From contig NZ_AP028142.1 in the NCBI RefSeq assembly GCF_030297675.1, positions 1,764,735-1,796,734 of the forward strand: a stretch of 32,000 bases of DNA. The letters run 5' to 3'. The notes below the pieces were generated by a model, which worked only from the letters and a program-made list of their open reading frames with translations, did no database searches and was not told where the DNA came from. The position numbers were made by a program, and so were the translations under genes. Numbering within the stretch: the stretch's first letter is position 1; each line of letters opens with the position of its first letter. This document shows, piece by piece, positions 10,477 through 28,312 of this stretch. Source of the DNA: Polynucleobacter sp. HIN11. Its GTDB lineage: Bacteria; Pseudomonadota; Gammaproteobacteria; Burkholderiales; Burkholderiaceae.

Positions 10477-10503
10477 GCAATTTCTCTCTATTTAATGGAT
10501 AAC

Positions 10504-10533: not shown

Positions 10534-10545
10534 AAAAAAGAGTGC

Positions 10546-10728
10546 TTAAGCCGCGGCTTTATTACCAGCCCCTAAAAATTCAACAATTTTCTTGGCAGTT
10601 TCAATATAGCGCTCATTCATTTTGCGGTATTGAGCTAATTCAGCCATTAATGGGTTCTCAACCTGCTCAAAAGACGCATCCTCATAACCAGGGTGATACG
10701 GCGCTTCATCAACCAGCTTGCTATTCAT
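10546..10728 (-). CDS. Small hypothetical protein (60 aa)
   Basis: The ORF-track frame is trimmed to the ATG at 10728, which is preceded by GGAGGATCT. No recognisable domain. Confidence 0.4.
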   Translation of the reverse strand: MNSKLVDEAPYHPGYEDASFEQVENPLMAELAQYRKMNERYIETAKKIVEFLGAGNKAAA

Positions 10729-10883
10729 AGATCCTCCAAAAGTAAAAAAATAATTAGATGGAATCAATGTAGCATAGGAAATTACAAAATAAATCTATAT
10801 AAATCAAAAGCTTATGTTATTAGCATTACTTACGGATGGGTTTTTTGTAAGGCCTGTTTCATTTTTCAGCACACCATTTCGTA

Positions 10884-11876
10884 TTACGAAATATTCAGCG
10901 ATTTATTGGCGCCCTTCTCAATTGCCGCCATCCCCTCAGCCACCGAATATAGAGCGCGGTAGTCAAATGCAATTTTTGCCTTATTCATGGAGACGGAAAA
11001 TGGATAGCCCATAGTACGCACTGCTTCACGTACAAGTGGTGGGTCTCCTTTGAGTGGCAAATAATTCCATCCATTTTCTGTAAATCGTGCCAAAGGCCAA
11101 GCAAGCGATAGTGGGATCGATAGGGTTGGTACTGCATAGCCGCTGGCCTCAAGTCGTGCACTCAGAAATTCGCGCAGGGTCATTTGCTCCTCATCCCGAA
11201 TAAAAAATGCTCCGCTAGGAACATTTGCTATAAGAACTTGCAAGACTGCTTGGCATAAATTGCCGATATAACAGGTGGAATAGGGATAGCGACCGTGACC
11301 AAACCAACCAAACTGTCCACGATCTGCCGCGGGTCCGATTTGGCGATCGATGATGTCTCCATTACCCCAAACCAAGGCGGGTCGCAATGCGATTGCGGTA
11401 AAACGCTCTGATGCGCTCGATAGCACCAATTGTTCAGCTTGTGCTTTTGAGTGAGCATAATGCAATGAATCTTGATGGCAAATGGGAACGTCTTCTGTAG
11501 CATTTTCGATCGGCACCGAGTCATTGAGCGCCACATTTGCACAGCTCATGTAAATAAATTTACCAACGCCCACTTGAGTCGCAGCCTCAAGCAGTCGTTG
11601 CGTCAACTGAATATTCAGCCTCTGATAGAGCGATTTGGGGCCCCATAGCCCAACATGGGCCGCGCAATGAATCACGCAATCGTGACCACGAACTAAGGAT
11701 TGCAAATCATTCGTCGACAGAAAATCAATTTGGGTCGTATTGACCCCACGCCGATTTAAAGATTTCGCATCCGCCTCAGATCTGGCGGTGGCACTGATCG
11801 AGTAACCCTCCTCTAATAGGCGACTTACTAAATGCCGCCCAATAAATCCCATGGCGCCAGTGATCAATATTTTCAT
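10884..11876 (-). CDS. NAD-dependent epimerase/dehydratase family (extended SDR) protein
   Basis: The N-terminus MKILITGAMGFIGRHLV is a Rossmann GxxGxxG motif, and the length (~330 aa) is typical. I prefer the start at 11876 over 11906. Confidence 0.8.
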   Translation of the reverse strand: MKILITGAMGFIGRHLVSRLLEEGYSISATARSEADAKSLNRRGVNTTQIDFLSTNDLQSLVRGHDCVIHCAAHVGLWGPKSLYQRLNIQLTQRLLEAATQVGVGKFIYMSCANVALNDSVPIENATEDVPICHQDSLHYAHSKAQAEQLVLSSASERFTAIALRPALVWGNGDIIDRQIGPAADRGQFGWFGHGRYPYSTCYIGNLCQAVLQVLIANVPSGAFFIRDEEQMTLREFLSARLEASGYAVPTLSIPLSLAWPLARFTENGWNYLPLKGDPPLVREAVRTMGYPFSVSMNKAKIAFDYRALYSVAEGMAAIEKGANKSLNIS

Positions 11877-11922
11877 CTTTGCTATGCTAGCGTAATTCAC
11901 ATACATGGATGATTAATTACTC

Positions 11923-12243
11923 TTGAGTATTTACTGGATCTCACTACTTCTCGCTGGCGCTTGTGAAATAGGCTGGCCCTTAGGTTTGAAACTCGCCGAT
12001 CTTCCCAATATGAAAATTTGGGGCATTGGTATTGCTGTAATCAGCATGGCCCTTAGTGGGGTGCTGCTTTGGTACTCACTAAAGGAGATTCCGATTGGAA
12101 CCGCCTATGCAGTTTGGACATCGATTGGAGCTGTGGGTACGTTTACTCTCGGAGTTTTAGTTTTTGGTGATCCTAATATTCCGATTCGCTGGATTGGTGT
12201 TGCGCTAATTTTGCTTGGGGTGATCCTGCTAAAAATGGGCTGA
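11923..12243 (+). CDS. sugE: SMR-family small multidrug/quaternary-ammonium efflux protein (SugE-like)
   Basis: 106 aa with four TM helices. The N-terminus ...WISLLLAGACEIGWPLGLK carries the conserved membrane Glu. TTG start. Confidence 0.8.
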   Translation: MSIYWISLLLAGACEIGWPLGLKLADLPNMKIWGIGIAVISMALSGVLLWYSLKEIPIGTAYAVWTSIGAVGTFTLGVLVFGDPNIPIRWIGVALILLGVILLKMG

Positions 12244-12256
12244 TGCTTAATGCTTT

Positions 12257-13282
12257 CTAGCTCACAAACTCAATTTGCAACGCTTTCATGAGCTCACCAA
12301 CTGTAAGAGTTCGGGCTTTATAAAAAGCGCTGCCAGCCCATAGACTCTGATGCTCTGCATTATGTGAGCGGGCTGCTGCTTGGCGTAATTGGCCAGTGAG
12401 TGTATTTTGGATTGGGAACGGTAATGTCGACTTAGCATCCATGTGGCGAGTAAACGTATTCTCAACCCCCCGAGCCCAGCGCCCCGAGAAGCCTTTTGTA
12501 AAAATACTTGGTCGCGGATTCTCGTCTAAGAGAAGGGCCTTATATTCAGAAGAGGCTCCCGATTCAGGGCAACACAAAAATGCGGACCCCATTTGCACAG
12601 CACTTGCTCCAAGATCCAAGGCCTTTCGAATATCACGGCCATTCATCATGCCGCCGGCTGCAACCACCGGGATAGTGCAGCGCTTGACCAATTGATGCAA
12701 AAGATCAAATGTTGATAAACGCTCATCAGGACTATCGATCTCAAATGTTCCGCGATGGCCGCCCGCCTCAATGCCTTGAGCAACAATAAAGCTGGCACCC
12801 GCTTGCTCAATCTTTAGCGCCTCCTCAAGACTGGTTGCTGTAATTCCGATGGCGATACTAAGCGCCATGGCCCGCTGCATAAGCCATTCAGGCGGGATAC
12901 CAAAATGAAAACTAAGAACCGCTGGCTGCAACTGCCAAACGGGCTCTAATTGCGTTTCAAGATCGGGGAAAAAGGGTGGTTTTGGAACAACGAAATCAAT
13001 ATCAGGAGTCAATTCTTGAAGAAGCTCAATTACCTGCCCTATCGTTTTTGAATCAGGTAATTCGGCACTTGGAAATATGAAAAAGTTGGCATTAATCGGG
13101 CCTTGCGTTAATGACTGTGCAAGCTTTAGGTCGTGGCCAATTGTTTCGGGAGAACTATAAGCAAAACCGAAGCTTCCTAAACCGCCCGCATTAGAAACCT
13201 CCGAAACCAAGGCTGGGGTGGTAATGCCCCCAGCCATTGGCGCCTGAATCACAGGGATAGAAAGATTGGCGAATGAAAACAT
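12257..13282 (-). CDS. Nitronate monooxygenase (2-nitropropane dioxygenase family)
   Basis: 341 aa. PVIQAPMAGG at the N-terminus and a TIM-barrel FMN-binding pattern (VVAAGGMMNGRD, GASAVQMGSAF). Confidence 0.85.
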   Translation of the reverse strand: MFSFANLSIPVIQAPMAGGITTPALVSEVSNAGGLGSFGFAYSSPETIGHDLKLAQSLTQGPINANFFIFPSAELPDSKTIGQVIELLQELTPDIDFVVPKPPFFPDLETQLEPVWQLQPAVLSFHFGIPPEWLMQRAMALSIAIGITATSLEEALKIEQAGASFIVAQGIEAGGHRGTFEIDSPDERLSTFDLLHQLVKRCTIPVVAAGGMMNGRDIRKALDLGASAVQMGSAFLCCPESGASSEYKALLLDENPRPSIFTKGFSGRWARGVENTFTRHMDAKSTLPFPIQNTLTGQLRQAAARSHNAEHQSLWAGSAFYKARTLTVGELMKALQIEFVS

Positions 13283-14281: not shown

Positions 14282-14680
14282 CTAAATCATCAATTGATAG
14301 AGGGTCCAACATAAATTCAAGACCACTAGGGCAATTAATGTATTGAATGTAAATTTCATGCCGAGCACACGCAAACTGAAATCTGGAGGCGGAGTATTGA
14401 TACCTTTAGCGTGAATTAAACGTCCAATAATCAGAAAAATTCCTGGCGCAAGAACTAACCACCACGGTGCTCCGTTTAACTCCAAACAGGCAATCATAAT
14501 AATTCCGAAAGGGACATATTCGGCAAAATTGCCCTGTGCACGAATTGCCCTCTCCAAGTCCTCGTAGCCTCCACTACCCAAGCCAACCTTATTCTTTCTG
14601 CGCAAACTAATCACATTGAAAGATAGCTTAATAAAAATAATGGTCAGAGTAGCAGCAATGATGGAGGTTACTAGTAGCAT
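14282..14680 (-). CDS. MAPEG-family membrane protein (YecN-like)
   Basis: 132 aa with 3-4 TM segments. RAQGNFAEYVPFGI is a typical MAPEG block. Confidence 0.7.
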   Translation of the reverse strand: MLLVTSIIAATLTIIFIKLSFNVISLRRKNKVGLGSGGYEDLERAIRAQGNFAEYVPFGIIMIACLELNGAPWWLVLAPGIFLIIGRLIHAKGINTPPPDFSLRVLGMKFTFNTLIALVVLNLCWTLYQLMI

Positions 14681-14793
14681 GTTGAGATCCTAGATAAGCT
14701 AAAGACGTTAACGTAACCCCAAAAGATCTAGAAGAGTGGCATATGGTTAATATTTTGATAAGTCGGTATTAAAAATCCTATGACTTCTCTGAA

Positions 14794-15282
14794 CTAATTA
14801 GAACTAGATTCAGGGCTTTGGTTAATCGCTCTTATATTGCGATAAGTTCGCATCATATCCATCATTACGGCCGTGCTCCAAGCAAAACAAAAAAGGCTGC
14901 TCATAGAGAGAACCACAGCAAGAATGCGATATCGGCTTGGTAAATTTGAAACGGCCCCCTCTGCCCCAATAGTCGTGTAAATACTACCAATCACAAAAAT
15001 TGCGTGATCAATACTGGTTGCTACTCCATGCTTTAGTCCCAATATAGAAAGTATTCCAATTTCACTTAAATGAATTAAGGCAAGGGCGGATAGGCCCATG
15101 AAGAAAAAAATTTCCATTCTGAAGTATTGATTTTTGGCAATCAGTGTTTTAGCGTGCCGGTGATATATAGATTGAGCACCCCACAAACATAGTCCGTGAT
15201 ACACGATTAATATGAAAAAGACTACGATAAATCCGATCAACAAACCAAAAGAAGATAAATCATCAATTGAAATTTCTCTCAT
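14794..15282 (-). CDS. Ion-channel-like membrane protein with a degenerate pore signature
   Basis: 162 aa. TM helices flank AIFVIGSIYTTIGAEG, which aligns by eye with the K+ channel pore-helix and filter pattern (xxTTVGYGD) but lacks the Y-G-D residues. Confidence 0.5.
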   Translation of the reverse strand: MREISIDDLSSFGLLIGFIVVFFILIVYHGLCLWGAQSIYHRHAKTLIAKNQYFRMEIFFFMGLSALALIHLSEIGILSILGLKHGVATSIDHAIFVIGSIYTTIGAEGAVSNLPSRYRILAVVLSMSSLFCFAWSTAVMMDMMRTYRNIRAINQSPESSSN

Positions 15283-15356
15283 TACGAGCTCTCCAATAAG
15301 TAATTCTTGTCGCTTATTACACCATTAAATAATGATGAAGCTCTTGTTTGCTGTGT

Positions 15357-15384
15357 AAAAAGAAAAACCACCCGAAGGTGGTTT
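15357..15384 (-). terminator. Rho-independent terminator downstream of tRNA-Phe
   Basis: The minus strand reads AACCACC-TTCG-GGTGGTT followed by TTTTTCTTTTT, 11 nt after the tRNA 3' end. Confidence 0.75.
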
Positions 15385-15394
15385 TGATGCATTT

Positions 15395-15499
<105 letters not shown>

Positions 15500-15632
15500 C
15501 TGTAGAGCTTGATAAATGTGTTAACTGTGTTGACTCTTGAGCGCGCTGTGGATCCTGTTGGGGTGGGAGTTCGCCATCCTGCTGACGGTGTTCTACATGG
15601 AACAACGGGCAGAGATATCTGAATCCTCTACT

Positions 15633-15809
15633 CTATGACGCGGCATTTGTTCGAACCATGGATAAACTCCGCTGACCTGCAGCAATTTTCTGTCGAGCAC
15701 GCTCTGCTTTGACTGCCTGCTGTGCTCGTTTAGCCTGAGCTTGTAGTGCTTTGATGCGCTGTTGCTCGGGTGTGGGTGGCTTTGCGGCTGTGATTTCTCG
15801 AATGATCAT
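15633..15809 (-). CDS. Possible small basic protein (58 aa), not in the ORF track
   Basis: My translation is MIIREITAAKPPTPEQQRIKALQAQAKRAQQAVKAERARQKIAAGQRSLSMVRTNAAS. Its ATG lies 2 nt after the stop of the 47-aa ORF upstream. There is no SD sequence, and the GC-rich context makes chance ORFs likely. Confidence 0.25.
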   Translation of the reverse strand: MIIREITAAKPPTPEQQRIKALQAQAKRAQQAVKAERARQKIAAGQRSLSMVRTNAAS

Positions 15810-15811
15810 GG

Positions 15812-15955
15812 CTATAACTGGGTAGGTATACCCAGCACGTTGTGAACACCAAATTGGGTTTGTAGGATCTTGATTGCAAAGTTCACGTTCTCAGCAAACA
15901 CGATGGTGGTCACTATCAATCCACTGGCACGAACGGTTGCACGAAATTGCTTCAT
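15812..15955 (-). CDS. Possible small protein (47 aa), not in the ORF track
   Basis: My translation is MKQFRATVRASGLIVTTIVFAENVNFAIKILQTQFGVHNVLGIPTQL. It is tightly coupled to the 58-aa ORF. No SD sequence is visible. Confidence 0.3.
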   Translation of the reverse strand: MKQFRATVRASGLIVTTIVFAENVNFAIKILQTQFGVHNVLGIPTQL

Positions 15956-16014
15956 ACAAATATTTAGTTATACGAATTACCAGCGTCCCAAATCTAGACG
16001 CTTATGTAAATCAG

Positions 16015-16051
16015 TCACAAAGGTTCCTGCCAATGTGGCCCACCTTTGTGA
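16015..16051. promoter_or_regulatory. Perfect 10-bp inverted repeat with a 17-nt spacer
   Basis: TCACAAAGGT (16015-16024) and ACCTTTGTGA (16042-16051). It lies between the hairpin cluster and the 47/58-aa ORF pair and could be an operator, an RNA stem-loop or a transfer/recombination site. Confidence 0.4.
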
Positions 16052-16080
16052 TGGGTTGCTTCGCCTCATCGGGCATTTTC

Positions 16081-16231
16081 AAAACTCGCCCCATGTGGGG
16101 CTGAAAAAGCCCGAACGCCCGGACACCAAAGCCTGCACTGAGCTCAGTGCTGGTGTCTATGGCTTGAGCTGCGCCGGGTCGTCGGGACTGGGCTGTCCCG
16201 ACTGCCGGGGCGCCTGCAGCGCCCCTCGCAA
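16081..16231 (-). ncRNA. GC-rich cluster of four perfect hairpins directly after the 146-aa gene (candidate structured RNA, 3' UTR or REP-like element)
   Basis: Four hairpins in + strand coordinates. GGGGCGC/GCGCCCC at 16207-16225. GTCGGGAC/GTCCCGAC at 16181-16202. GACACCA...TGGTGTC at 16122-16157, enclosing the 16-nt palindrome GCACTGAGCTCAGTGC. GCCCC/GGGGC at 16088-16101, followed on the - strand by GAGTTTTGAAAA (terminator-like). By my count 64 of the 90 bases in 16141-16230 are G or C. Confidence 0.3.
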
Positions 16232-16672
16232 TCAACGTCTAAATCCGCTACGCAAACTTGCACTGGCAGTTTCAATTTGAGCATCTAACTCACCTGCTTC
16301 CACTGCAGCTTTGATGGCGGTCAATGCTTTGACCAACTCCTCTCCACTTGCCACTTCCACACTGGGCTTGCCTTTGGCTAATTCAATGGTCCAGCTGCCG
16401 TATTTGACGGCCACACAGACTTTGCCAGTCTCGCTCTGAAACCACCAGGGCTTGATGCGCTTGGGCACTTCCACTTGCTTGCGCAGCCCTGTTTCACTGT
16501 CTTTGATTGAGCGGTATTTCATGACCACGAACGGTTTGCCATCGAGCTGGCTTTGTGCCAAATTAATCTGCTCCCACAGCTTGGTGGCCAGCTTGTTTCT
16601 ACGAATCACAATGGCAGGTATGTTACGTGGCTTTTTTACTGCGACCAACTTTAAGTTACTTAATGTGCTCAT
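16232..16672 (-). CDS. Hypothetical protein (146 aa) of an island-borne conserved family, function unknown
   Basis: Clean ORF: MSTLSNLKLVAV...RRNKLATKLWEQINLAQSQ...PKRIKPWWF...AVEAGELDAQIE. I recall very similar ~150-aa proteins in proteobacterial genomic islands, catalogued only as a DUF. That is from memory and unverified. Confidence 0.7.
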   Translation of the reverse strand: MSTLSNLKLVAVKKPRNIPAIVIRRNKLATKLWEQINLAQSQLDGKPFVVMKYRSIKDSETGLRKQVEVPKRIKPWWFQSETGKVCVAVKYGSWTIELAKGKPSVEVASGEELVKALTAIKAAVEAGELDAQIETASASLRSGFRR

Positions 16673-16724
16673 CTTCTTTCTCCTATTGGGTTAATGGGCA
16701 CATGTAGTTTGTTTTCGATCGCGC

Positions 16725-16746
16725 GATTTGGTCGACCTCTTTTTGG
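16725..16746. promoter_or_regulatory. GGTCGACC palindrome motif, copy 1
   Basis: GATTTGGTCGACCTCTTTTTGG. The palindrome centre is 61.5 nt upstream of the 146-aa gene start codon (16672, - strand). Confidence 0.35.
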
Positions 16747-17059
16747 ATTAATCCACAAAACCCCTCATTTTTTCCACGAAAAGTAGGGGTTTTCTTTGTG
16801 CGGACTAAATACTTTTGCGAGTTGCTTGGTTACAAAGTTTGGTCGCAAGAAATAAAGTAGTTGCGTAAGTGAGTTACTAAGGAGTTACTGGAGTGGCAAA
16901 TGAGTAACTCTGACTAGCGACAGCACGTGCAACATCTCTTTTGAGATCTGCAACACAACTCCTTGCAACGATCTTTTGATCTCGACTCCTTTTGTAACCA
17001 GCACAACCAGCTTCAAGCAACCGCACGAGAACTCAATCAATTTGAATAAGGAGAACGAT

Positions 17060-17509
17060 ATGAGAGAAATAGCGATTCGAGGATTTATTAACGAGAAGTT
17101 CAACACCACATTTGGTAAAGGTTTGTTTCGCAGGGCTGTTTATAACGGCTCTGTGGAACTGCATGATCCCAATCAAAAATACTTAGTAGACTACTTTTCC
17201 TATCGCGAGTGGGAAACACAAGCAAAGACAGATGAACAAATCCGGGTCATCAATGATTTGATCAACTCCGGCATTGCTCAAGAGAAGGACATGCTGTTCT
17301 CATGGTTGGTTCATTATGACCCATTGACCAAATCTAAAGAACGGGCTGAAGGCTACAGCGTGTATTCACCCAATACTCGCGAGCTGTTTATCAAGATCGA
17401 CGATCCTATCCATCAAACCCAAGATGAATGGACTCTGAATGTGCATCACTGCAAAGTAACTGGCGCAAATAAACCTGTGTTCATAGCTGCAAACGTTGAT
17501 TTAATGTAA
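17060..17509 (+). CDS. Hypothetical protein (149 aa)
   Basis: ATG at 17060 preceded by AAGGAG with 6-nt spacing; the ORF-track TTG at 16976 is probably not used. No recognisable motif. Divergent from the 146-aa gene. Confidence 0.65.
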   Translation: MREIAIRGFINEKFNTTFGKGLFRRAVYNGSVELHDPNQKYLVDYFSYREWETQAKTDEQIRVINDLINSGIAQEKDMLFSWLVHYDPLTKSKERAEGYSVYSPNTRELFIKIDDPIHQTQDEWTLNVHHCKVTGANKPVFIAANVDLM

Positions 17510-17530
17510 TGCGCTAACGCTAGCTATACG

Positions 17531-17686
17531 AAACCCCCTCAAAAACCGCCTATGCGCAATGATCTTTGGGCATCACAGCACCTAGTAGCTAGAAGGCATG
17601 CAAATAGCTTACAAGCGGATTTTGAGGGTTTATTTGCAATCTGTTGTCTAAATCCCACGATCAGTTAATGATTGGCGGGGTTTTTG
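17531..17686 (+). ncRNA. Candidate structured 3' UTR or small RNA ending in a Rho-independent terminator
   Basis: Long-range stem AAACCCCCTCAAAAACCGC (17531-17549) pairs with GCGGATTTTGAGGGTTT (17615-17631), about 16 bp with a CC bulge and an A-A mismatch, enclosing ~65 nt. It is followed by the hairpin CCCACGATCA-GTTAA-TGATTGGCGGGG (17654-17680) and TTTTT (17681-17685). Confidence 0.3.
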
Positions 17687-17769
17687 ACTAAATATCTATG
17701 CTGAACTAGCACCACATAAAAGTGCAGTTTTCTTTAAGTCATTGATTCTTGGAAGGTCTTTTTGAGTCA

Positions 17770-17791
17770 AATTTCGGTCGACCTTTTTTGC
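17770..17791. promoter_or_regulatory. GGTCGACC palindrome motif, copy 2
   Basis: AATTTCGGTCGACCTTTTTTGC. The palindrome centre is 62.5 nt upstream of the recombinase ATG (17842, + strand). Confidence 0.35.
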
Positions 17792-17841
17792 AAAAGAAAA
17801 CAAACTAAAGCGTGTTTTTTATTTAAACAAGGAACAATTAA

Positions 17842-18408
17842 ATGGCTCAAGCAAAAACCCTAACTACTGCAGAACTGGATGAAGTATTACGCTACGTTTC
17901 GACCAAAAAATATGCGCAGCGGGACCGCGCACTAATACTCACTAGCTTTTGGTCAGGCATGCGGGTGGGTGAGATTGCCGCACTCACTATGGGCGATGTC
18001 CTCAATGACGATGGCACCATCAAAAGCGAGATTCGCCTAAGTGCCGCGCAAACCAAAGGCCGCCATCCAAGAACAGTTTTTATTCCAGAAAAACTAAAGA
18101 CAGAATTGCAATCCTATATAGCAACACGCTATGCACGCTTGCCACAACTGCCATTTTTTCATAGTGCTAATCGTGTAGGCTTTTCGGCCAATGGGTTATG
18201 CCAGTGGTACTTTTGGACTTATCGCGCTGCTGGCATCTCAGGAGCCAGCAGTCACTCAGGAAGAAGGTCGTTTTTGACCACATTGGCCAATAAAGGTATT
18301 GGGGTTCGTATATTGGCCAGCCTAGCAGGCCATAAATCCATTGCAGTAACCATGAAATATTTGGATGCGAACGATGAGATGAAGAGAAATGCGGTTGAGC
18401 TAATCTAA
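17842..18408 (+). CDS. Small tyrosine recombinase (catalytic domain only, 188 aa)
   Basis: Catalytic signature residues are in order: GMRVGEIAAL (Arg), HSGRRSFLTTL (His-x-x-Arg), LAGHKSIAVTMKYL (His...Tyr). There is no N-terminal core-binding or arm-binding domain. AAGGAA lies upstream of the ATG. Confidence 0.85.
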   Translation: MAQAKTLTTAELDEVLRYVSTKKYAQRDRALILTSFWSGMRVGEIAALTMGDVLNDDGTIKSEIRLSAAQTKGRHPRTVFIPEKLKTELQSYIATRYARLPQLPFFHSANRVGFSANGLCQWYFWTYRAAGISGASSHSGRRSFLTTLANKGIGVRILASLAGHKSIAVTMKYLDANDEMKRNAVELI

Positions 18409-19332
18409 TGGCAGGCTTGACTCTTTTTGTCTTCTTGCAATCTCTTGCTCAACCAACCGTTCGAAACGTTTGCGAGCACGTCTTTTCTTTTGTAATTGCT
18501 TCATCATGACATTTGTGTAGTCATGATGTTGAATGGTCTTATCCTCTGTTGATCGATCCCACATATACTGCACTTCCTCAATAAAGCGCTCACGTAGTAG
18601 CGTTGATAAATGATCAAAATCAAAATGCATATAAAAAAGAGGTTTTTGTTTGGATGGAAATTTTCCACGTGCTGCATTTTCAGCAACAATCAAGGCTTCA
18701 GCAATATTTTTGCTCACTAACATTCCTAAATATGCCCTGGCTTTTTCGTTGCTAGCTGTTAGTTTGGAATCTTCTTTAATTCCGCGCTTCCATTTGGTTT
18801 GCAAATTTGCAGATAATGCAATCCGCCAATTTTCCAGCCCTGGGTTTCCATCCAAATAGGCGCTTGCCTTTTCTTCAATCAATTGCAACTTTTCGAAAAG
18901 TGAAAAGGGTTGAATTTTATTAACCTCTAAAAATGCTTTGGCCCTTTTAGATTTCTTTTGCCGTTTCTGCGCCTCACTTATTTTTAAATCTACTTGCTCC
19001 ATCAATGCTTGTTTAGGTTTAGTGATATCTAAAGTAAGACTTAGTGTGGTCAGGTCTGCATCGGAATAGAATAGATTGCAGCCTGTCTGCTCCCACCACA
19101 CTTCAAATGGTGTGGTGAAAATATCCCCAAATTGATCATATGTTTTTAGAACAGCCTTGATATCTTTGGGCAATGTTTTGTCATTTAAGCTCAGTTCACC
19201 CTTTCTAATTAGGTGTGCCTTCCAATAACTTGGGCTAACAATTAGGTATTGGAAATAAAGGTTATGTTCAACAGTAGGTAGTTGATTGAGGTTTTTCCAA
19301 CGATCCCCGAAATTAAAGCCTAATTTAGCCAT
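18400..19332 (-). CDS. Hypothetical protein (310 aa), Lys/Arg-rich central and C-terminal segments
   Basis: Long clean ORF that overlaps the recombinase 3' end convergently by 9 bp. Basic tracts (QKRQKKSKRAKAF, KKRRARKRFERL) suggest nucleic-acid binding. No catalytic motif recognised. Confidence 0.7.
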   Translation of the reverse strand: MAKLGFNFGDRWKNLNQLPTVEHNLYFQYLIVSPSYWKAHLIRKGELSLNDKTLPKDIKAVLKTYDQFGDIFTTPFEVWWEQTGCNLFYSDADLTTLSLTLDITKPKQALMEQVDLKISEAQKRQKKSKRAKAFLEVNKIQPFSLFEKLQLIEEKASAYLDGNPGLENWRIALSANLQTKWKRGIKEDSKLTASNEKARAYLGMLVSKNIAEALIVAENAARGKFPSKQKPLFYMHFDFDHLSTLLRERFIEEVQYMWDRSTEDKTIQHHDYTNVMMKQLQKKRRARKRFERLVEQEIARRQKESSLPLD

Positions 19333-19350
19333 TTCTTGATAGTTTTAGCT

Positions 19351-19382
19351 TATACAAAATAAGTTCGTACTCATTTTGTATA
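19351..19382. promoter_or_regulatory. Perfect 10-bp inverted repeat in a divergent promoter region (candidate operator)
   Basis: TATACAAAAT (19351-19360) and ATTTTGTATA (19373-19382), 12-bp spacer, between the divergent 310-aa and 311-aa genes. Confidence 0.45.
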
Positions 19383-19483
19383 TTTTACAGATCCATCAAG
19401 AATTCCCATAATCCCTCTGGTCAATTGAGCACTTTAGGCATTTCGCCACAACCGCTTGATTGATTTTTAAAAGGAGTATTGGT

Positions 19484-20419
19484 ATGTCTAATACCTTTGA
19501 GAAGCACTTTACGATCGAGGGTGAGGAAACGCATCCGAGCATCAAGATCGATCCACAAAAAGCCAAGGTAACACTGGATTCGGGGGGCTCTAAGGCTTCA
19601 CCAACCAAGTCTCAGCAAAACCCAGGCATTCAAGTAACGCCACCTCCAGCGATCACTTATAAAAATGAGATCACCTTCGTGGACTCATTGGCACATGATC
19701 AGCAAATCAAGCCCAAAAAGCTAGAAGAGTATGTTCTGGCCTTTAAGCAAGGTGCTGAGAAAACAGCGCGATCGACGCTGGAGATGTGCCGGGTGGTGTA
19801 TGAGGCAAACCAAACCTTGGGTGATTTGGAGTTTCGCGACTTTTGTCGTTCCATTGGATTTAAGGATTACAGCAGCACGATCCGTAAATTCATAGCCATT
19901 GGCAAAGTCTATCCGCGTTTTATCGACTATGCCAATCAGTTACCAGCCAGCTGGACTAACATTTATTTGATAACTCAAATTCCGGCTACGGAGTTTGAGA
20001 ACATCATCAAGGGACGAGTCCGGCTGTCTGAATTAACCGGCTCGCGTCTGCAAAAAATGTTAGAACGCACCAAGGATATCTCTGATATTCGAGGTGTTAT
20101 GCGCTATGACAAAAAGAACTCGGGCTATGTGTATGCCAAGTTGCTTTTTACCAAGGTGCCTGATGATACCGATTGGCGTGCTGCGGAAAAGGCCATCAAT
20201 GAGCTATGCGCTCGATTGCCCATCAAGTTCTTAGTTGACGAGAATGTCCGCAATGTTTTGTCCCAACGCAAAAACAAACGGTACGAGCAAACCAAGAAGC
20301 ATTACAAGGATATTGAAATGCGTCCTGACCTATGGGATCTTGGTGCCGAAGCAAATGCTGCCTATAAGACCGCTGAGCGTGTCAAAGAAGCAGATGCTAA
20401 GACAACTGTAACAGTATAA
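19484..20419 (+). CDS. Hypothetical protein (311 aa); weak resemblance to plasmid/phage DUF3102-type proteins
   Basis: ATG at 19484 preceded by AAAGGAG. The central block LEMCRVVYEANQTLGDLEFRDFCRSIGFKDYSSTIRKFIAIGKVY loosely recalls DUF3102-like helical domains, from memory only. A strong terminator follows. Confidence 0.65.
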   Translation: MSNTFEKHFTIEGEETHPSIKIDPQKAKVTLDSGGSKASPTKSQQNPGIQVTPPPAITYKNEITFVDSLAHDQQIKPKKLEEYVLAFKQGAEKTARSTLEMCRVVYEANQTLGDLEFRDFCRSIGFKDYSSTIRKFIAIGKVYPRFIDYANQLPASWTNIYLITQIPATEFENIIKGRVRLSELTGSRLQKMLERTKDISDIRGVMRYDKKNSGYVYAKLLFTKVPDDTDWRAAEKAINELCARLPIKFLVDENVRNVLSQRKNKRYEQTKKHYKDIEMRPDLWDLGAEANAAYKTAERVKEADAKTTVTV

Positions 20420-20423
20420 GAAG

Positions 20424-20453
20424 CTGCCGTCGCTGCAGAGACGGTAGTTTTTT
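20424..20453 (+). terminator. Rho-independent terminator
   Basis: CTGCCGTC (20424-20431) pairs with GACGGTAG (20440-20447): 8 bp including one G-U, with an 8-nt loop, followed by T6. Confidence 0.75.
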
Positions 20454-20482
20454 AATCAAACAACTTTATATGAGAGAACATC

Positions 20483-20638
20483 ATGAAAAATAAACTATCC
20501 AATGTAATCTGGGTTGACTTTAAATCAGGTCGAAAAATTGATTTAAGCAATCTGGAGCGCCCACAAAAGCCTCATCAAGTAATTCTAAGCATATGCAAGA
20601 GTGAGCATATTTCGCGAAAGAAAGTGGGGTATCAATGA
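20483..20638 (+). CDS. Possible small basic protein (51 aa), not in the ORF track
   Basis: MKNKLSNVIWVDFKSGRKIDLSNLERPQKPHQVILSICKSEHISRKKVGYQ. Its stop overlaps the next ATG (ATGA). Confidence 0.3.
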   Translation: MKNKLSNVIWVDFKSGRKIDLSNLERPQKPHQVILSICKSEHISRKKVGYQ

Positions 20639-20808
20639 TTATCTACACCATTGAATACACAATTGAGGTTTTGGGTAGCGTTGAAATAAAGGCTACTTCA
20701 AAAAACGAGGCTTACGAGAAATACAATCAAATCTCATGGCAGGAGCTGATTGATATTGGGAGCAAAAGTGAGCAATACGATATTTATGAGACCTCAGTTG
20801 AAGATTAG
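20635..20808 (+). CDS. Possible small acidic protein (57 aa), not in the ORF track
   Basis: MIIYTIEYTIEVLGSVEIKATSKNEAYEKYNQISWQELIDIGSKSEQYDIYETSVED. It is translationally coupled to the 51-aa ORF and ends 8 bp before the convergent integrase stop. Confidence 0.3.
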   Translation: MIIYTIEYTIEVLGSVEIKATSKNEAYEKYNQISWQELIDIGSKSEQYDIYETSVED

Positions 20809-20815
20809 GCAAAAT

Positions 20816-22030
20816 TTAAGCCAACTTCTCCGCATTCATCATTGGGGTCAACTTCGAGTAATGCCGCTCAATCATGCCCACGCTAGTGCCCATTTGCCTG
20901 GCCAATGTGTGTATATCCACACCCTTGGCCAAGGCCAGTGTGGCATAGGTGTGGCGCAGACTATATAGAGTTCGGTTCTGTCCGCTGCCATCTGTGCGCA
21001 TGTGGCTGCGAACCATTAAGTTACGAAAGATATTTTCCATGTTGCTTATTTGCTCACCCGTAGGTAGTCGAAATATCAAGGCGTCTAACTTGGCCTCAAT
21101 CACAGCCGCCAATCCTGAATAGGGCAGCTTGTGCCAACGAATGATCTGTTCAAACACCCGGATCACGGCATTTTTTGCAATCAGATATCTGGGACCCGTC
21201 TTACCCGACACCCAAATCCGCAAATACCGGCGGTTACCGATCCAGTGCCACTGCAAGTGTCGCCATCTAAGTGGTAATGCTTCTGTTCCATGCCGAACAC
21301 CCGTGTTGACCAGAAACTCAATGTAGTAGGTGCACAGGGTTCGCATGTGGGCGGTTCGCATGGTGTATGAACTCCGTTGCCAGGTCTGGGTATAGCTCAA
21401 TAACTCAGTGATTTCCTGTTCGGTAAACGCGGGTCTTGCTTGGCTGGCTCGTCCTTTGGCATCTAACATGGGCACTGGTTGATTAATGCCAACAAGGCCA
21501 TGGTCTCTAGCTAGATTGATTACTCGGGCATAGGCACTGGCGTGATTACGCTTGGTGCTGGCCATGGGGATCTTGCCCATCTCGCTGGCGCGCCAAGATT
21601 CAAAATCACTGATCAACTCGGTTGTAATTTGCCCCACTTCATATTTTCCAAAGAAGGGAATCAAATACTTGTTAATAGCAAAGGTGTAGTCTCGATAAGT
21701 GCGTTTACCCACTTGGTTATTCATTGCCTGAGCCATACGGTCAATCTCATCTGCGGCCACTTGCCTGAAGGTTTTGGTGACTGGAGACAATCCTGCACTA
21801 ACTTTGATCTTGATGGTTTCATATATAACCACAGCTTGGGTCTGGGCTAATACCAAATCATCTGTATTAGTTGACGCTGAGTGCCATTGCCCATTGGGTA
21901 ACTTGAAGCGACATTGCCATTTACTGCTATGAGATCGTTTGAAGAGGGTTAGTTCACCGCCAAGCAATGCGACGGCTTTGGGCAACTCTTGGGTGGCAGA
22001 GTGAGCGAAGAAATACTGTAAGTTTTGCAA
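20816..22030 (-). CDS. int: Tyrosine-type site-specific integrase (phage integrase family)
   Basis: About 400 aa with an N-terminal arm/core-binding region (FKRSHSSKWQCRFKLPNGQW). Catalytic motifs are NTGVRHGTEAL, LYSLRHTYATLAL and MIERHYSKL. The start is uncertain: there is no ATG near the 5' end, and the TTG at 22030 is the ORF-track call. Confidence 0.9.
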   Translation of the reverse strand: MQNLQYFFAHSATQELPKAVALLGGELTLFKRSHSSKWQCRFKLPNGQWHSASTNTDDLVLAQTQAVVIYETIKIKVSAGLSPVTKTFRQVAADEIDRMAQAMNNQVGKRTYRDYTFAINKYLIPFFGKYEVGQITTELISDFESWRASEMGKIPMASTKRNHASAYARVINLARDHGLVGINQPVPMLDAKGRASQARPAFTEQEITELLSYTQTWQRSSYTMRTAHMRTLCTYYIEFLVNTGVRHGTEALPLRWRHLQWHWIGNRRYLRIWVSGKTGPRYLIAKNAVIRVFEQIIRWHKLPYSGLAAVIEAKLDALIFRLPTGEQISNMENIFRNLMVRSHMRTDGSGQNRTLYSLRHTYATLALAKGVDIHTLARQMGTSVGMIERHYSKLTPMMNAEKLA

Positions 22031-22133
22031 ATTCAGCGTCCATTTACGCGACGCTTGCTAGCTTAGCTTCAGATCGGGGTTTGGGCGACCGATTTATTTT
22101 GTCGGGAAAACCGACATTCTAAATATTCCAAAA

Positions 22134-23027
22134 TCAAAGCATTGTCAGAATAGCCGCCATACCGAGGGAGCCAAGAGTAAAAGAAAATATTACGGATCGA
22201 CATGAAGTACCTTTAAGAGCTTCAGGAATCAACTCTTCCTTGATAACAAACATCATTGCACCCGCTGAAATTGCGAGAGCCCATGGAAGCAGCAGCGCAC
22301 TATCGCCTACTGCGAATATGCCTATAGCTGCGCCCAACGGCTCAAGTAATCCTGTAGCTACAGCCAACGCAAACGCCATGCTACGGCTTGCACCAATCGA
22401 CCAAAGGGCCGTCGCCACGATAAGCCCTTCAGGAATATTCTGCATACCAATTGATAATGCAATACCCCAACCTAAGGCATCACCACCCCCATAACCAGCG
22501 CCAACGGCAAAACCTTCAGGCAGATTATGGACGGCAATAGCAATCACCATCAATCGTATTGAATCCGCAGACAATACAACACAAGTATTTGGGGCAGCAT
22601 GCATGTGTGGCAACATCCGATCAAGCGCGGCCATTGCTGCATAACCGATAACAACGGCCAGCAGAATATCAAACGCCACAGGAATATTGCTCATTTGGAT
22701 GGCTGGCATAAGCAACGATAAAAGCGCAGCTGCAAACATGGCTCCCGCAGACAGCGCCAAAAATCCAAATATTCCTTGAGTGATCGTACTGCGCTTCAGT
22801 GCGAAGATACCCAAAGCGCCTAGGCCTGTTACCCCCCCAGCAAATAATGAAGCCTGTAAAGCTTGGGTTTCAGTTGGGTGTAATTGCAACCATGCAGTCC
22901 ATAGCCCCAAACCGATGCTGTATAAGATTAAGGCAAGCCCAATGAGGTTGATTGGCAACCCCCACAACAAGCGGATTGGCATTGCACTCATGCGGTGTTT
23001 CATGCGAAGAATAACTTGGGTCATCAC
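22134..23027 (-). CDS. zupT: ZIP-family divalent metal transporter (ZupT-like)
   Basis: Polytopic protein with the signature motifs HNLPEGFAVG and QNIPEGLIV. The likely start is the ATG at 23024, which follows GGAGAA. Confidence 0.85.
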   Translation of the reverse strand: MMTQVILRMKHRMSAMPIRLLWGLPINLIGLALILYSIGLGLWTAWLQLHPTETQALQASLFAGGVTGLGALGIFALKRSTITQGIFGFLALSAGAMFAAALLSLLMPAIQMSNIPVAFDILLAVVIGYAAMAALDRMLPHMHAAPNTCVVLSADSIRLMVIAIAVHNLPEGFAVGAGYGGGDALGWGIALSIGMQNIPEGLIVATALWSIGASRSMAFALAVATGLLEPLGAAIGIFAVGDSALLLPWALAISAGAMMFVIKEELIPEALKGTSCRSVIFSFTLGSLGMAAILTML

Positions 23028-23212
23028 TTTTCTCCGTCAGATGATCTACCTCGTTGAGGAAGGATCTAAGCCCTCCGCCAACCAATAGCATTTGGTTTAA
23101 TCTACGATTGCATTTTTGATTGACCCGATTAATCAGTCAAATGAATAGTTTTGATAGAGGTGATCGAAAAATTCGATATAAATTCAGTTGAAACCTTGAA
23201 TTCGTAAGACAA

Positions 23213-24100
23213 CTAGGCTTTTAATATTTTGACCAAGGCATTAAATTCCTCAATACGAGCGGTTGTCTGACGGGCAACTAAAGCAATTTTTCGTTTCGGG
23301 GCGGGGCTAATCAGCGGACGTGCTGTAAGTTTGGTTTGTTTTAAAAAACCAGCTTTAATCGCCATTTCGGGCAATAGTGCCAAGCCCAATCCTGACTCAA
23401 CCATTTGTACTAAGGTTAGCAAGCTCGTAGCTTCTAATGCATCGGGCGGTAATTCGTTACGCTTGCAGGCTTTTAAGGTGTGCTCCCGCAAACAATGCCC
23501 TTCCTCCAAAAATAAGATTTGATCCGACATTTTGTTCGTTAGTTGGATATCCTTATTCTTTAAAACTGGGTCATCGGCTTTTCCAATGAGCCAGAATTCA
23601 TCATCAAAGACCTCTTTCACCAAATAACCACTGGTGGGATACGGTAGTGCGATTAAAGCGAAATCTAATTCATGTCGACTAAGTTTGTCGATTAAATTAA
23701 CAGTCAGGTCCTCTCGGGGGATAACCTTTAAGTCAGGGTAGCTAGAGCGCATCTTTGGCAATAACCACGGCAGAACAAATGGTGCGATGGTTGGAATAAC
23801 GCCTAATTTCACCATCCCCCGCATGGCGCCTGACGAAGCCTCAACAAAGTCCACCAAATCATCTGCCTGCCCGATGAGTGCCTCAGCTCTTTGAGCCACC
23901 CCCAGTCCAATGGCAGTCAGCGATACAGAATGCTTATCGCGCTCGACCAACTGAACACCTAGCGTGTCTTCAAGCTCTTTGAGTCCAGCACTTAAGGTTG
24001 ATTGACCAACAAAGCAAAGCTCCGCGGCTTTCGTGAAATTAAGCGTCTGCCCCAAAGCAACTAGGTAGCGCAACTGTTTTAGGGTTGGGGTCATCGTCAT
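23213..24100 (-). CDS. oxyR: LysR-family hydrogen-peroxide sensor OxyR
   Basis: LysR HTH N-terminus plus LEEGHCLREHTLKAC. Both redox cysteines have the same 9-residue spacing as E. coli OxyR Cys199/Cys208 (LEDGHCLRDQAMGFC). Divergent from katG. Confidence 0.85.
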   Translation of the reverse strand: MTMTPTLKQLRYLVALGQTLNFTKAAELCFVGQSTLSAGLKELEDTLGVQLVERDKHSVSLTAIGLGVAQRAEALIGQADDLVDFVEASSGAMRGMVKLGVIPTIAPFVLPWLLPKMRSSYPDLKVIPREDLTVNLIDKLSRHELDFALIALPYPTSGYLVKEVFDDEFWLIGKADDPVLKNKDIQLTNKMSDQILFLEEGHCLREHTLKACKRNELPPDALEATSLLTLVQMVESGLGLALLPEMAIKAGFLKQTKLTARPLISPAPKRKIALVARQTTARIEEFNALVKILKA

Positions 24101-24371
24101 TTGGTAATCGATAAATTAGATTGAAATCATCATTTTAATTAGTTGGACTGATACTGGCAAGACGCCCAAAATCCCCTTGTTGATGAACAAATCGCACCGA
24201 GGATCAAATGAGTTGGATTTTGAAAATTAAATCGCAGTTCAGTTTAAGTAAGCAAGACTTGATCTATTTCCTAGCGACCTATATGGCTGGCTCAGTCCAT
24301 ATCGGGCGTTAATTCTGGAAATTGATTTGGGCATTTGTTATTCAACATTAATTGACATCACAATTTTATAA

Positions 24372-26534
<2,163 letters not shown>

Positions 26535-26674
26535 TCACTAGCTATACTTTTGATGACGGGGGTAAAGCCCCGTCATCAATCGTAATAATTTTTTGGTAAT
26601 TGAAATTATTTGGAACTTAAAGAAATTAAAACTGCTCCAATTATCTTGAAATACAACTCTATACACTAGAAATC

Positions 26675-26911
26675 ATGAAACCAACCATTCCTCAAAAAGC
26701 ACCTTACCCGATAACTGTTGAGGCTGGAAAAACTTATTACTGGTGCTCCTGTGGCAAAAGCAAAAATCAACCCTTTTGCGATGGCAGTCACCAAGGTACT
26801 AAATTTACACCCAAGCAATTGGTAGCCACAGAATCAAAGACCATTTACTTCTGTGGGTGTAAGCAATCAAAAAATGGCGTGTTCTGTGATGGTAGCCATA
26901 ATGCCTTATAA
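26675..26911 (+). CDS. CDGSH-type iron-sulfur domain protein (two CDGSH motifs)
   Basis: 78 aa containing CSCGKSKNQPFCDGSH and CGCKQSKNGVFCDGSH. Confidence 0.85.
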   Translation: MKPTIPQKAPYPITVEAGKTYYWCSCGKSKNQPFCDGSHQGTKFTPKQLVATESKTIYFCGCKQSKNGVFCDGSHNAL

Positions 26912-27249
26912 AGCAAACCGAAGGCAGCCTCATGCTCTGCTAACCCATTAGGCCGCTACCCACGGCTTGAAGGGCTGGCTAATCTGCGGCACAGAATGCT
27001 CAACAATGACATACAGCGCCCTGATTTAGCTGTTCTTCGAGGCAATAATGAGGATGGGTTGCAGGAAGTTCAATAAATTTATCAAGCGTCCAGTAATCGG
27101 ACGCCCAAAATTTTGTTCCACTTGGAACAGAGGATTAAACATCCTCTATCTACCCAGGCTTGATTGATACAGGCTTGTAGGGATTGCTCTATATTAATTA
27201 AAGTTGGAGAATCAAAGAAATTGTTGAATATAAGAATGGACAAAATACC

Positions 27250-28056
27250 TTGTCTTCAAAAGAACTTGCAGAACTTGAAAATGCCCTCAACAGGTTAAGT
27301 TATTTTTACAACGAACTTGAAGTCTTTCTTCCAAAAATATACTTTAATGAAGATGCCCCTTACAGAACATTTAGAGTAAACAATGATGAGCACACCGATT
27401 CACTAGTTTGCTATTTAAAAGGAATGAAGGCTGTCTCAACTTTGAATGCAAGCCTAGTCTTGCTTAAGTCAGGATATACCCAAGAAGTTGGTGCACTTTG
27501 CAGAATGCTTGATGAAGCGTGTAACGAAATATTATTTTTAATCAAGCCCGAAGGTGAAAATGCATTAAGCAGTAGTCAAGAGCAATTCTTAGACAGCTTT
27601 TATCAGGAAGAATTTAGTGAATCTAAAAATATTCTTGAAGCACATAACCCACGACATACTGTGTCTTCTCAAAAAATTCACGCATCAATTGCAAGAACTA
27701 TGTCTATATCAATAAATCCTTCTGATGCACAAGCAATGTCAAGCATAGTTCAAAAAACACTATCTGGCTATGTTCATGGAGCATATCCGCAAATTATGGA
27801 GATGTATGGTGGCAATCCACCACACTTTCATATGCATGGAATGCTAGGAACTCCGAGAATGGTTGAGTGGACGGCTCAAGTCGTCTCATACACCGATAAA
27901 CTGATAATGCTTTCTATTTTGATCTCTAGAAAACTGGGTGCCCTAGGAGTGGAAAAACTTATGCAAGAATTTAGGTTTGAATTTGAGTCTAAATTTTCTA
28001 CGCGATCAGATCTATCGCCTAAAGAGTTGCTTGAGGCGGCTAAAAAATCACAATAG
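27250..28056 (+). CDS. Hypothetical helical protein (268 aa), AT-rich orphan at the island edge
   Basis: Clean ORF with a TTG start; the next in-frame Met is 58 codons in. It is visibly more AT-rich than its neighbours. The block NASLVLLKSGYTQEVGALCRMLDEACNEILFL loosely recalls DUF5677/AbiV-type proteins, a weak recollection only. Confidence 0.55.
   Translation: MSSKELAELENALNRLSYFYNELEVFLPKIYFNEDAPYRTFRVNNDEHTDSLVCYLKGMKAVSTLNASLVLLKSGYTQEVGALCRMLDEACNEILFLIKPEGENALSSSQEQFLDSFYQEEFSESKNILEAHNPRHTVSSQKIHASIARTMSISINPSDAQAMSSIVQKTLSGYVHGAYPQIMEMYGGNPPHFHMHGMLGTPRMVEWTAQVVSYTDKLIMLSILISRKLGALGVEKLMQEFRFEFESKFSTRSDLSPKELLEAAKKSQ

Positions 28057-28245: not shown

Positions 28246-28312
<67 letters not shown>

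Follow-up and report, generated by a model that had tools for sequence, protein, structure and literature searches.

What is the compact group of genes at 15.5-20.8 kb that lies between a tRNA-Phe gene and an integrase gene in a 32,000-nucleotide (nt) stretch of the Polynucleobacter sp. HIN11 chromosome (the whole of this stretch is hereafter called the window)? An earlier reading, made from the letters of the DNA alone (the sequence-only reading), had offered three answers: the maintenance and regulation core of an integrative element, a recombinase-controlled cassette, or a small protein-plus-RNA defence or exclusion system. The first of these proved to be essentially right. Very probably, the region forms the conserved backbone of a site-specific integrative island, 12.8 kb long, that occupies the tRNA-Phe gene of Polynucleobacter. 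The island is bounded by a regenerated tRNA-Phe gene and a displaced 5' fragment of this gene, and the backbone genes, which co-occur in many unrelated genomes, recur with different cargo, at different tRNA genes and in many genera.

The island and its tRNA-Phe boundaries

The limits of the island are set by a 67-nt direct repeat, the two copies of which (15433-15499 and 28246-28312) are 99% identical, are spaced by 12,813 bp and end at the anticodon-loop end of tRNA-Phe (position 38). The island extends from about 15471 to 28312 and contains the flagged module together with the gene of a 404-amino-acid (aa) tyrosine integrase and a block of cargo genes; whereas the module had been taken to stop at the integrase, the distal end of the unit lies at 28.3 kb. 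The attachment-site (att) fragments of the window, including a third one at 31428-31494, are 5' halves of the tRNA gene with its -10 region and not the usual 3' ends, and the displacement of a 5' fragment is the rarer configuration among islands in tRNA genes (tDNA islands). Since the displaced piece is a 5' fragment with a -10 region, an incoming element must bring the tRNA promoter. In the mechanism that we propose, the 404-aa integrase would recombine an attP site, composed of the tRNA-Phe 5' half and the -10 box, with the chromosomal tRNA gene; the crossover would probably fall in the anticodon loop, so that the element would supply the promoter of the regenerated tRNA.

The Islander algorithm accepts a 5' fragment upstream of a tDNA as one of its configurations (PMC4383910). 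Indeed, the locus presents what this algorithm looks for, that is, an intact tDNA together with its displaced fragment, the two sharing one orientation in an arrangement that is permitted, and a tyrosine integrase gene (20816-22030) within the interval. The predicted function of the integrase and the proposed att sites rest on direct sequence evidence.

On the tRNA side, the flank upstream of the regenerated gene (15471-15632) is 85-86% conserved beside internal 5' tRNA fragments of three relatives (L097, L113 and L114), and it presumably supplies the remainder of the promoter for the regenerated tRNA. The neighbouring Polynucleobacter chromosome is 99% identical to AP028137.1 (1.85 Mb), and this identity ends at 15474, 4 nt upstream of the tRNA; at the same locus, AP028137 is arranged otherwise, a 5' tRNA fragment lying internally. 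Furthermore, exact protein look-ups returned contigs with the genes of a 162-aa protein and of an autotransporter, and these contigs break at the tRNA repeat.

Beyond the distal att repeat, the repeat search of the window returned the third, degenerate tRNA-Phe 5' fragment (31428-31494), which marks an older island with the autotransporter; the locus is therefore a tandem array. The autotransporter gene (877 aa) lies between the second and third fragments (28313-31427), in what looks like an older, integrase-less island of this array, and sequence resembling 31324-31446 also adjoins the internal tRNA fragments in L097 and L113/L114. On the chromosomal side, a terminator-like bidirectional hairpin (AAAAACCACCCGAAGGTGGTTTT) stands at 10496-10527 and 15354-15385 (also at 5703-5734), after several chromosomal genes including tRNA-Phe.

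Recurrence of the backbone with changing cargo

A genome scan for the family of the 310-aa protein of the module yielded 76 loci, and 84 non-redundant loci with this family form the base for the co-occurrence counts given below. The loci stem from Polynucleobacter, Methylophilaceae, Oxalobacteraceae, Comamonadaceae, other Burkholderiales, Sphingomonadales, Rhodobacterales and others, and they share a recurring set of genes: DUF6641 (the 146-aa protein of the window) with mini-open reading frames (mini-ORFs), the 149-aa protein, the 188-aa recombinase, the 310-aa and/or 311-aa protein, and the integrase. The 188-aa recombinase is present in 57 of the 84 loci, in 26 of which its gene is convergent with the 310-aa gene, as in the window; DUF6641 is present in 44 and an Int404-like integrase in 42, while recombinase, DUF6641 and integrase occur together in 26. 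Two gene orders are found among the relatives, many of which adjoin tRNA-Lys, Asn, Cys, Thr or Phe, and the homologues of the 404-aa integrase (53-92% identity in relatives) lie mostly beside tRNA genes. The identities are mosaic, as exemplified by L113, where DUF6641 is 95%, the 149-aa protein 59%, the recombinase 67% and the integrase 92-100% identical.

In a Polynucleobacter sub-family, seen in three contexts, the 311-aa protein occurs without the 310-aa gene in an even smaller element, with the order mini-ORFs, DUF6641, a 152-aa protein, mini recombinase, 311-aa family and integrase. Three genomes share such a sister element of 6.5 kb, the copies being 99.6-99.9% identical and differently flanked (L104, positions 5974-12485, L105 and L106), and the family is therefore currently mobile. 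The L104-L106 element stands at or near a tRNA-Arg/tRNA-Pro pair, and NCBI gives its 311-aa-family protein the label MULTISPECIES. In relatives whose integrases are 53-54% identical, the 3' 45 nt of tRNA-Arg are used instead; in L107, a 10.9-kb island is bounded by 45-nt repeats of the tRNA-Arg 3' end and has the order tRNA, cargo, integrase, core and displaced fragment. Its relative layout is that of the window, with the opposite half of the tRNA duplicated.

These observations bear on whether the locus might be an inert remnant of a prophage or of a larger island, the conserved genes being relics. The window element is without the AAA+ gene of most relatives, an inverted repeat upstream of its recombinase gene is degenerate, and no att repeat adjoins the integrase, all of which would suit a remnant. 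However, all ORFs are intact and the att repeats nearly identical, the same island was found in several samples, the sister element has the near-identical copies described above, and the 311-aa sub-family is widespread despite having no AAA+ gene (266 homologues, with 24 contigs for one protein). We regard an inert remnant as improbable.

In the window, as in relatives, the cargo occupies the interval from the integrase to the distal att repeat. It is an oxidative-stress and metal set, in which the LysR gene takes an OxyR-like position beside katG and the CDGSH protein is an iron-sulfur protein; the equivalent place in L107 holds an extracytoplasmic function (ECF) sigma/anti-sigma pair, CMD, thioredoxin and DsbD. 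Across the relatives, restriction-modification genes are among the cargo, which comprises an EcoRI-type methylase with GmrSD, a Dcm methylase with SLATT_5, an AAA_15 ATPase, HepT/MNT, an ECF sigma factor with thiol-redox genes, and an acyltransferase. Because the cargo differs between elements, the defence genes are passengers and not the system. The features of the island are compiled in Table 1.

Table 1. Coordinates, strand and supporting evidence of the features of the island, in window positions.
Feature	Position	Strand	Evidence
Intact tRNA-Phe(GAA)	15395..15470	-	ARAGORN; Rfam tRNA 68.7 bits
att repeat copy 1: tRNA-Phe positions 1-38 and 29 nt upstream with TATAAT	15433..15499	.	direct repeat
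Island-end flank, upstream of regenerated tRNA	15471..15632	-	identity with relatives; AP028137 break
58-aa basic coiled-coil mini-protein, last gene of DUF6641 operon	15633..15809	-	homologues
47-aa mini-protein	15812..15955	-	homologues
GC-rich multi-hairpin RNA-like element (~230 nt), directly 3' of DUF6641 gene	16001..16238	-	folding versus shuffles
146-aa DUF6641 protein	16232..16672	-	PF20346 2.8e-16; phrog_31551 3.3e-23
Candidate promoter/operator box GGTCGACC-N13-GAAAACAAACTA upstream of DUF6641 gene	16705..16737	-	motif count
Iteron-like array, leader of 149-aa gene: 5 GTTRC then 6 GYAAC around invariant ACAAATGAGTAAC	16791..17030	.	motif density
149-aa protein	17060..17509	+	no family match
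Long hairpin (17536-17628) and terminator-like hairpin after 149-aa gene	17536..17690	+	inverted repeat I4
Degenerate inverted repeat AAGAAAA-N6-TTTTCTT, then IHF-consensus-like site TAAGTCATTGAT	17712..17746	+	relatives
Candidate promoter/operator box GGTCGACC-N12-GAAAACAAACTA upstream of mini recombinase gene	17776..17807	+	motif count
188-aa tyrosine recombinase, catalytic domain only	17842..18408	+	PF00589
310-aa all-alpha protein, motifs SPSY, WW, ENAARGxFP	18400..19332	-	AF2 model
Palindromic operator candidate between divergent 310-/311-aa genes	19351..19382	.	10-bp perfect arms TATACAAAAT/ATTTTGTATA
Sigma-70-like promoter TTTACA-17-CATAAT for 311-aa operon, abutting operator candidate	19384..19412	+	motif
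311-aa protein: disordered N-terminus, helical core residues 70-195	19484..20419	+	AF2 model
Two overlapping mini-ORFs (51 and 57 aa) after 311-aa gene, convergent with integrase	20483..20808	+	ORF calls
404-aa tyrosine integrase with N-terminal SAM-like domain	20816..22030	-	PF00589 and PF14659; phrog_1 1.2e-30
Cargo: ZIP transporter, LysR-family regulator, KatG-like catalase-peroxidase, CDGSH protein, 268-aa protein with weak DUF5677 match	22134..28056	.	Pfam
att repeat copy 2: displaced tRNA-Phe 5' fragment	28246..28312	.	direct repeat

Proteins and DNA sites of the backbone

The five main ORFs and the four mini-ORFs stand where the sequence-only reading had placed them; they are called as genes in independent assemblies and have homologues elsewhere. 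That reading was also upheld as to absent functions, since no relaxase, capsid, replicase, toxin or defence model was matched in Pfam, PHROG, NCBIfam and PADLOC, and in these four libraries the 149-, 310- and 311-aa proteins have no match at all. Its statement that the 188-aa protein alone is recognisable has to be amended, as the 146-aa protein scores 60.2 bits with Pfam DUF6641, where the cutoff is 27, and also matches phrog_31551. The literature search returned no publications on DUF6641, and sequence and profile searches of the PDB with the 146-, 310- and 311-aa proteins returned nothing.

The 188-aa protein is matched by Pfam Phage_integrase (PF00589) over residues 6-179 (8.6e-21) and can be aligned with residues 99-273 of the XerA-like structure 4a8e; read by eye, this alignment has the R, K, H-x-x-R, H and Y positions in place. 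By sequence, its best structural relatives are XerA and XerD, and it resembles FimB/FimE in being of about the same size with a full catalytic domain. It differs from both types in having no N-terminal core-binding domain, which sets it apart from the two-domain Xer architecture, and in scoring far under every curated cutoff (54-69 bits with the XerC, XerD and XerA models, against cutoffs of 220-335; 36.8 bits, or 3e-9, with the tyrosine-type DNA invertase model NF007370, against a cutoff of 221). Neither an invertible segment nor a dif-like chromosomal role is evident for it.

Upstream of the recombinase gene, 13 of 18 close relatives have the dif-like inverted repeat AAGAAAA-N6-TTTTCTT near position -136 (background 0.0046 per 300 nt); a site resembling that of integration host factor (IHF) lies at about -107. 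Does this recombinase govern a switch or cassette, inverting or excising a segment with a promoter, for example the region of the 149-aa gene, and thereby toggling expression? The FimB/FimE-like size, the partial match to NF007370, the inverted repeat with its adjacent IHF-like site, the similar blocks (D1, D9 and D11) upstream of both the 149-aa and the recombinase genes and the two gene orders among relatives are what one might expect of such a switch, but the Xer-type models score higher than NF007370, the inverted-repeat search found no inverted pair of sites flanking a segment, all near-identical copies have one orientation, and the inverted repeat is degenerate in the window. A switch thus seems quite unlikely to us. 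As a part of the integrative backbone, the catalytic-domain-only protein may instead be an accessory recombinase which, speculatively, would most likely resolve multimers or tandem arrays at the inverted repeat and IHF-like site upstream of its own gene.

The 8-bp palindrome that had been pointed out about 62 nt upstream of two start codons is borne out: the 32 kb contain exactly two copies of GGTCGACC, where 0.2 would be expected, each copy being centred ~62 nt upstream of a start codon. It forms part of a bipartite box, GGTCGACC-N12/13-GAAAACAAACTA, which was found twice against zero expected, both times oriented with the downstream gene. In relatives, the corresponding position before the DUF6641 gene is taken by a variant box (GGACAACC/GGACGACC). 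Of 61 distinct regions upstream of the mini recombinase, 52 have a GGTNGNNN box (mostly GGTCGNCC, GGTTGTCC or GGTAGGAA) at 62-74 nt before the start, and this box persists down to 42% protein identity and in both Alpha- and Betaproteobacteria. A loose regular expression for the bipartite box, applied to all loci, found it before the recombinase gene, but the pattern lacked the precision needed for the DUF6641 genes. One shared promoter/operator box would co-regulate DUF6641 and the mini recombinase. A sigma-54 promoter was considered for the GGTCGACC...TTGCA box, and likewise for the conserved GGCACTTTCGCC leader, and was rejected by eye in both cases for wrong GG-GC spacing.

The DUF6641 and 149-aa genes are separated by a 387-nt intergenic region that is conserved at 70-86% in relatives; the 149-aa protein itself has homologues in 16 loci, plus L104-L109. 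The region holds 11 GTTRC/GYAAC motifs per 240 nt, which is the maximum of the window (mean 0.87, standard deviation 1.1), and the array is conserved in 12 relatives. We read it as an iteron-like, putative protein-binding array, and the DUF6641/149-aa pair may accordingly flank a multi-site protein-binding locus, be it an origin, a partition-like site or a regulatory hub. An RNA was rejected for this region, as alifold gave -3.5 kcal/mol and no consensus fold.

As regards the two structured segments that had been described, the one after the 146-aa gene is well founded: the GC-rich element (16001-16238) has a minimum free energy of -126.6 kcal/mol (z = -5.7). Behind the 149-aa gene, the structure is weak overall (z = -2.0), though the hairpins there are kept in relatives, the pairing being preserved by compensatory changes (CCGC/GCGG versus GCCC/GGGC; GTCGTC/GACGAC versus TGTGGGA/TCCCACA). 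The GC-rich element is lineage-specific, being confined to six related elements, always directly after the DUF6641 gene; its copies are 95-97% identical with changes mostly in loops, and no compensatory pair proving an RNA was found among the six. Most relatives are without it and have a gap of 26-70 nt in its place. A dispersed repeat or miniature inverted-repeat transposable element was rejected, every copy lying in the same context. At E <= 1, Rfam returned over 14500-22500 the tRNA match and one chance-level small RNA match outside the module, with the structured segments unmatched. In L107 (positions 5956-7413), the gene of a 485-aa AAA_15/AAA_21 ATPase lies between the DUF6641 gene and the mini-ORFs, exactly where the window has the GC-rich element; this position is therefore an insertion hot spot.

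The same segments had inspired the idea of a stand-alone protein-plus-RNA defence or exclusion system, with the integrase a neighbour by chance. While the highly structured 230-nt element and the frequent location of relatives beside defence genes speak for it, PADLOC gave 0 matches for 10 proteins, the module is constant and the defence genes are variable, interchangeable cargo in relatives, the structured element is missing in most relatives, and the module is always accompanied by integrases and tRNA att sites. Moreover, the best-conserved non-coding region is the DNA repeat array, which has no conserved RNA fold, and the strongly structured segment is the lineage-specific one. Such a system is, in our view, very improbable indeed. 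In the integrative backbone, the non-coding parts are mostly DNA sites, namely the GTTRC array, the shared promoter boxes and the palindromic operator.

The other main genes encode the divergent 310- and 311-aa proteins. The AlphaFold2 (AF2) model of the 310-aa protein is all-alpha (pLDDT 78.9) and has no Foldseek match in the PDB or BFVD; its family was extended from 26 word-index matches to 858 clusters at 50% identity by profile search. The model of the 311-aa protein (pLDDT 71) has no significant structural relative in the PDB, the best Foldseek hint, Spo0J/ParB-parS (4umk), not being significant (E = 2.3, probability 0.28, TM 0.37), and its 266 homologues are mostly from Polynucleobacter where the source is named. 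Across the 84 loci, the 310-aa gene almost invariably has a divergent partner gene. This partner belongs, in 49 loci, to one superfamily (families C4, C106, C111, C31 and C69, linked by HHalign at 93-99%, with C14 linked weakly at 71%), and it is often followed by the gene of a clamp-loader-like AAA+ ATPase (phrog_168, 1e-21). The partner in the window is the 311-aa protein, which is unrelated to the C4 superfamily; a diverged membership was ruled out (HHalign probability <1%).

The perfect 10-bp inverted repeat reported between the two genes is indeed present at 19351-19382, and in the L004 lineage a perfect 20-bp palindrome takes its place. The divergent pair, with this candidate operator beside a sigma-70-like promoter, may constitute the regulatory switch of an early operon, which in relatives would comprise the C4-family protein and the clamp-loader-like ATPase. 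A leader of the form GGCAYTTCGCC-N5/6-CGCT-NAGTTGATTTTT-AAGGAG lies at 19430-19483 and is also seen upstream of the 311-aa/C4 genes in L004, L104 and L107; the leader with NAGTTGATTTTT is kept upstream of the early-operon gene alike when this gene is of the 311-aa family or of the unrelated C4 family.

Finally, the mini-ORFs are conserved to different degrees. The 58-aa mini-protein has homologues in 19 loci (43-88% identity) with its position kept, and the 47-aa mini-protein has homologues (30-62% identity) directly after DUF6641 in eight loci, L077 among them. In six loci of another Polynucleobacter sub-lineage, a DUF6876 protein (PF21781, 1.8e-31) replaces the 47-aa mini-ORF after DUF6641. 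At the other end of the module, the 51-aa ORF (20483-20638) has a single homologue, at 49% identity in L077, and the 57-aa ORF (20635-20808) has homologues only in near-identical copies and is also called as a gene in an independent assembly; relatives carry ORFs of 54-71 aa where the window has this pair.

Weighing the island reading and comparison with known systems

Several points weigh against a site-specific integrative island with this backbone. The recombinase alone, out of the five proteins, has a biochemical function that is demonstrated or confidently predicted, and Foldseek gave nothing significant for the 310- and 311-aa models. Pfam, PHROG and NCBIfam brought to light no excisionase, replication initiator, relaxase or packaging gene. 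There is no att repeat of at least 10 nt beside the integrase at 22031-22133, because of which the ZIP-KatG block could be older island material and not the cargo of one element. Exact look-ups of the flanking proteins found no empty site (the ZIP protein has no record), no excised circle was observed, and the copy of AAGAAAA-N6-TTTTCTT in the window, degenerate as it is, could equally be an operator. The roles of the 310/311-aa pair, the DUF6641/149-aa locus and the mini recombinase are those that we infer from gene order and cis elements.

The integrative backbone may possibly be more than this, and we tentatively put it forward as a distinct self-mobile class of small integrative elements in Proteobacteria of plankton and soil, which would correspond in fresh water to the tycheposons. 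The class would combine a two-recombinase logic (a full integrase and a catalytic-domain-only recombinase that needs a DNA-binding partner) with regulators or replication proteins of new fold (the 310-aa family and the C4/311-aa partners) and an iteron locus flanked by DUF6641, and would follow a route without conjugation or capsid genes of its own. If this holds true, genes for adaptation and against phages would pass from species to species as cargo of such elements. Polynucleobacter and Methylophilaceae rank with the most abundant bacteria of fresh water, and genomic islands drive the micro-diversity of these bacteria, their vehicles being poorly defined. The 310-aa ENAARGxFP family, DUF6641, the 188-aa recombinase with its upstream box and the GTTRC array make up a searchable signature of one such vehicle, and this signature ties it to ecologically interesting cargo such as oxidative-stress and defence genes. 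The analysis also draws attention to three protein families of considerable size that have neither a Pfam model nor a structural relative in PDB/BFVD, while the conserved catalytic-domain-only tyrosine recombinase raises the mechanistic question of DNA recognition. For annotation, genes between the backbone and the tRNA fragment are to be read as cargo.

How does the island compare with known systems? Phage satellites, namely phage-inducible chromosomal islands (PICIs), phage-inducible chromosomal minimalist islands (PICMIs) and virion-encapsidated integrative mobile elements (VEIMEs), are like it in size, in site-specific integration, here at tRNA genes, in the divergent regulator-like pair with an operator and in the small replication-like module of relatives with its clamp-loader-like ATPase. 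A satellite of the PICI or PICMI kind would be induced by a helper, replicate from the iteron region and be packaged in helper capsids, the other proteins acting as regulators and interference factors. DUF6641 has a PHROG family, and the 310-aa family is common to prophage-like contigs: it was found in eight IMG/VR contigs (17-40 kb), within about 0-4 kb of one contig end and divergent from a partner gene there too, and tail or tail-fibre genes lie a few kb from the 310-aa gene in at least 2 of the 3 contigs checked. Against this, Pfam, PHROG and NCBIfam revealed no terS, capsid or capsid-redirecting, AlpA/Stl, primase or Rep homologue, and the VEIME set of primase/helicase, AlpA, terS and excisionase is not present. 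The window family is, furthermore, almost absent from IMG/VR, where 2.9 million contigs held no 311-aa homologue and 3 DUF6641 homologues, and 50,697 phage records gave no match for the island. A satellite is therefore an unlikely explanation.

An integrative island of the tDNA type accords better with these data, yet it is set apart from integrative and conjugative or mobilisable elements, as no relaxase, origin of transfer (oriT), coupling protein or type IV secretion system gene was matched in Pfam and NCBIfam. The 310-aa protein had no match among 72,556 plasmids; the plasmid collections likewise gave none for the island DNA, and for DUF6641 they gave weak ones only. The tDNA islands of the Islander type (PMC4383910) are similar in their regenerated tDNA with a same-orientation displaced fragment, in the integrase inside and in the tandem arrays; the displaced piece here differs in being a 5' fragment.

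Tycheposons (Hackl et al., bioRxiv 10.1101/2020.12.28.424599), which are reported from Methylophilaceae (PMC10872708), offer a further comparison. Their gene types include primase, helicase, excisionase, terS and major capsid protein (MCP) (bioRxiv 10.1101/2020.12.28.424599), and these went unrecognised in the backbone proteins with Pfam, PHROG and NCBIfam models, as distinct from the profiles of the tycheposon authors. A further apparent difference is that the integrase of the window is internal and not at an end: it faces the core module, with 6.2 kb of cargo between it and the distal att repeat. The recurring genes here are a catalytic-domain-only second recombinase and the DUF6641, 310-aa and 311-aa families, of which no published description was found in the literature library searched; the term undescribed holds within the libraries and papers searched, whereas the kind of element is known. 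In common with tycheposons, these are small integrative elements of streamlined planktonic bacteria with a tyrosine integrase and tRNA targets, in which partial-tRNA repeats and tandem arrays build islands (as also seen from the internal fragments in L097 and L114) and a compact mobility/replication module is joined to niche-adaptive or defence cargo. The island hence belongs to a large family of small, cargo-carrying elements, and this family is one of tycheposon- or PICI-like integrative islands.

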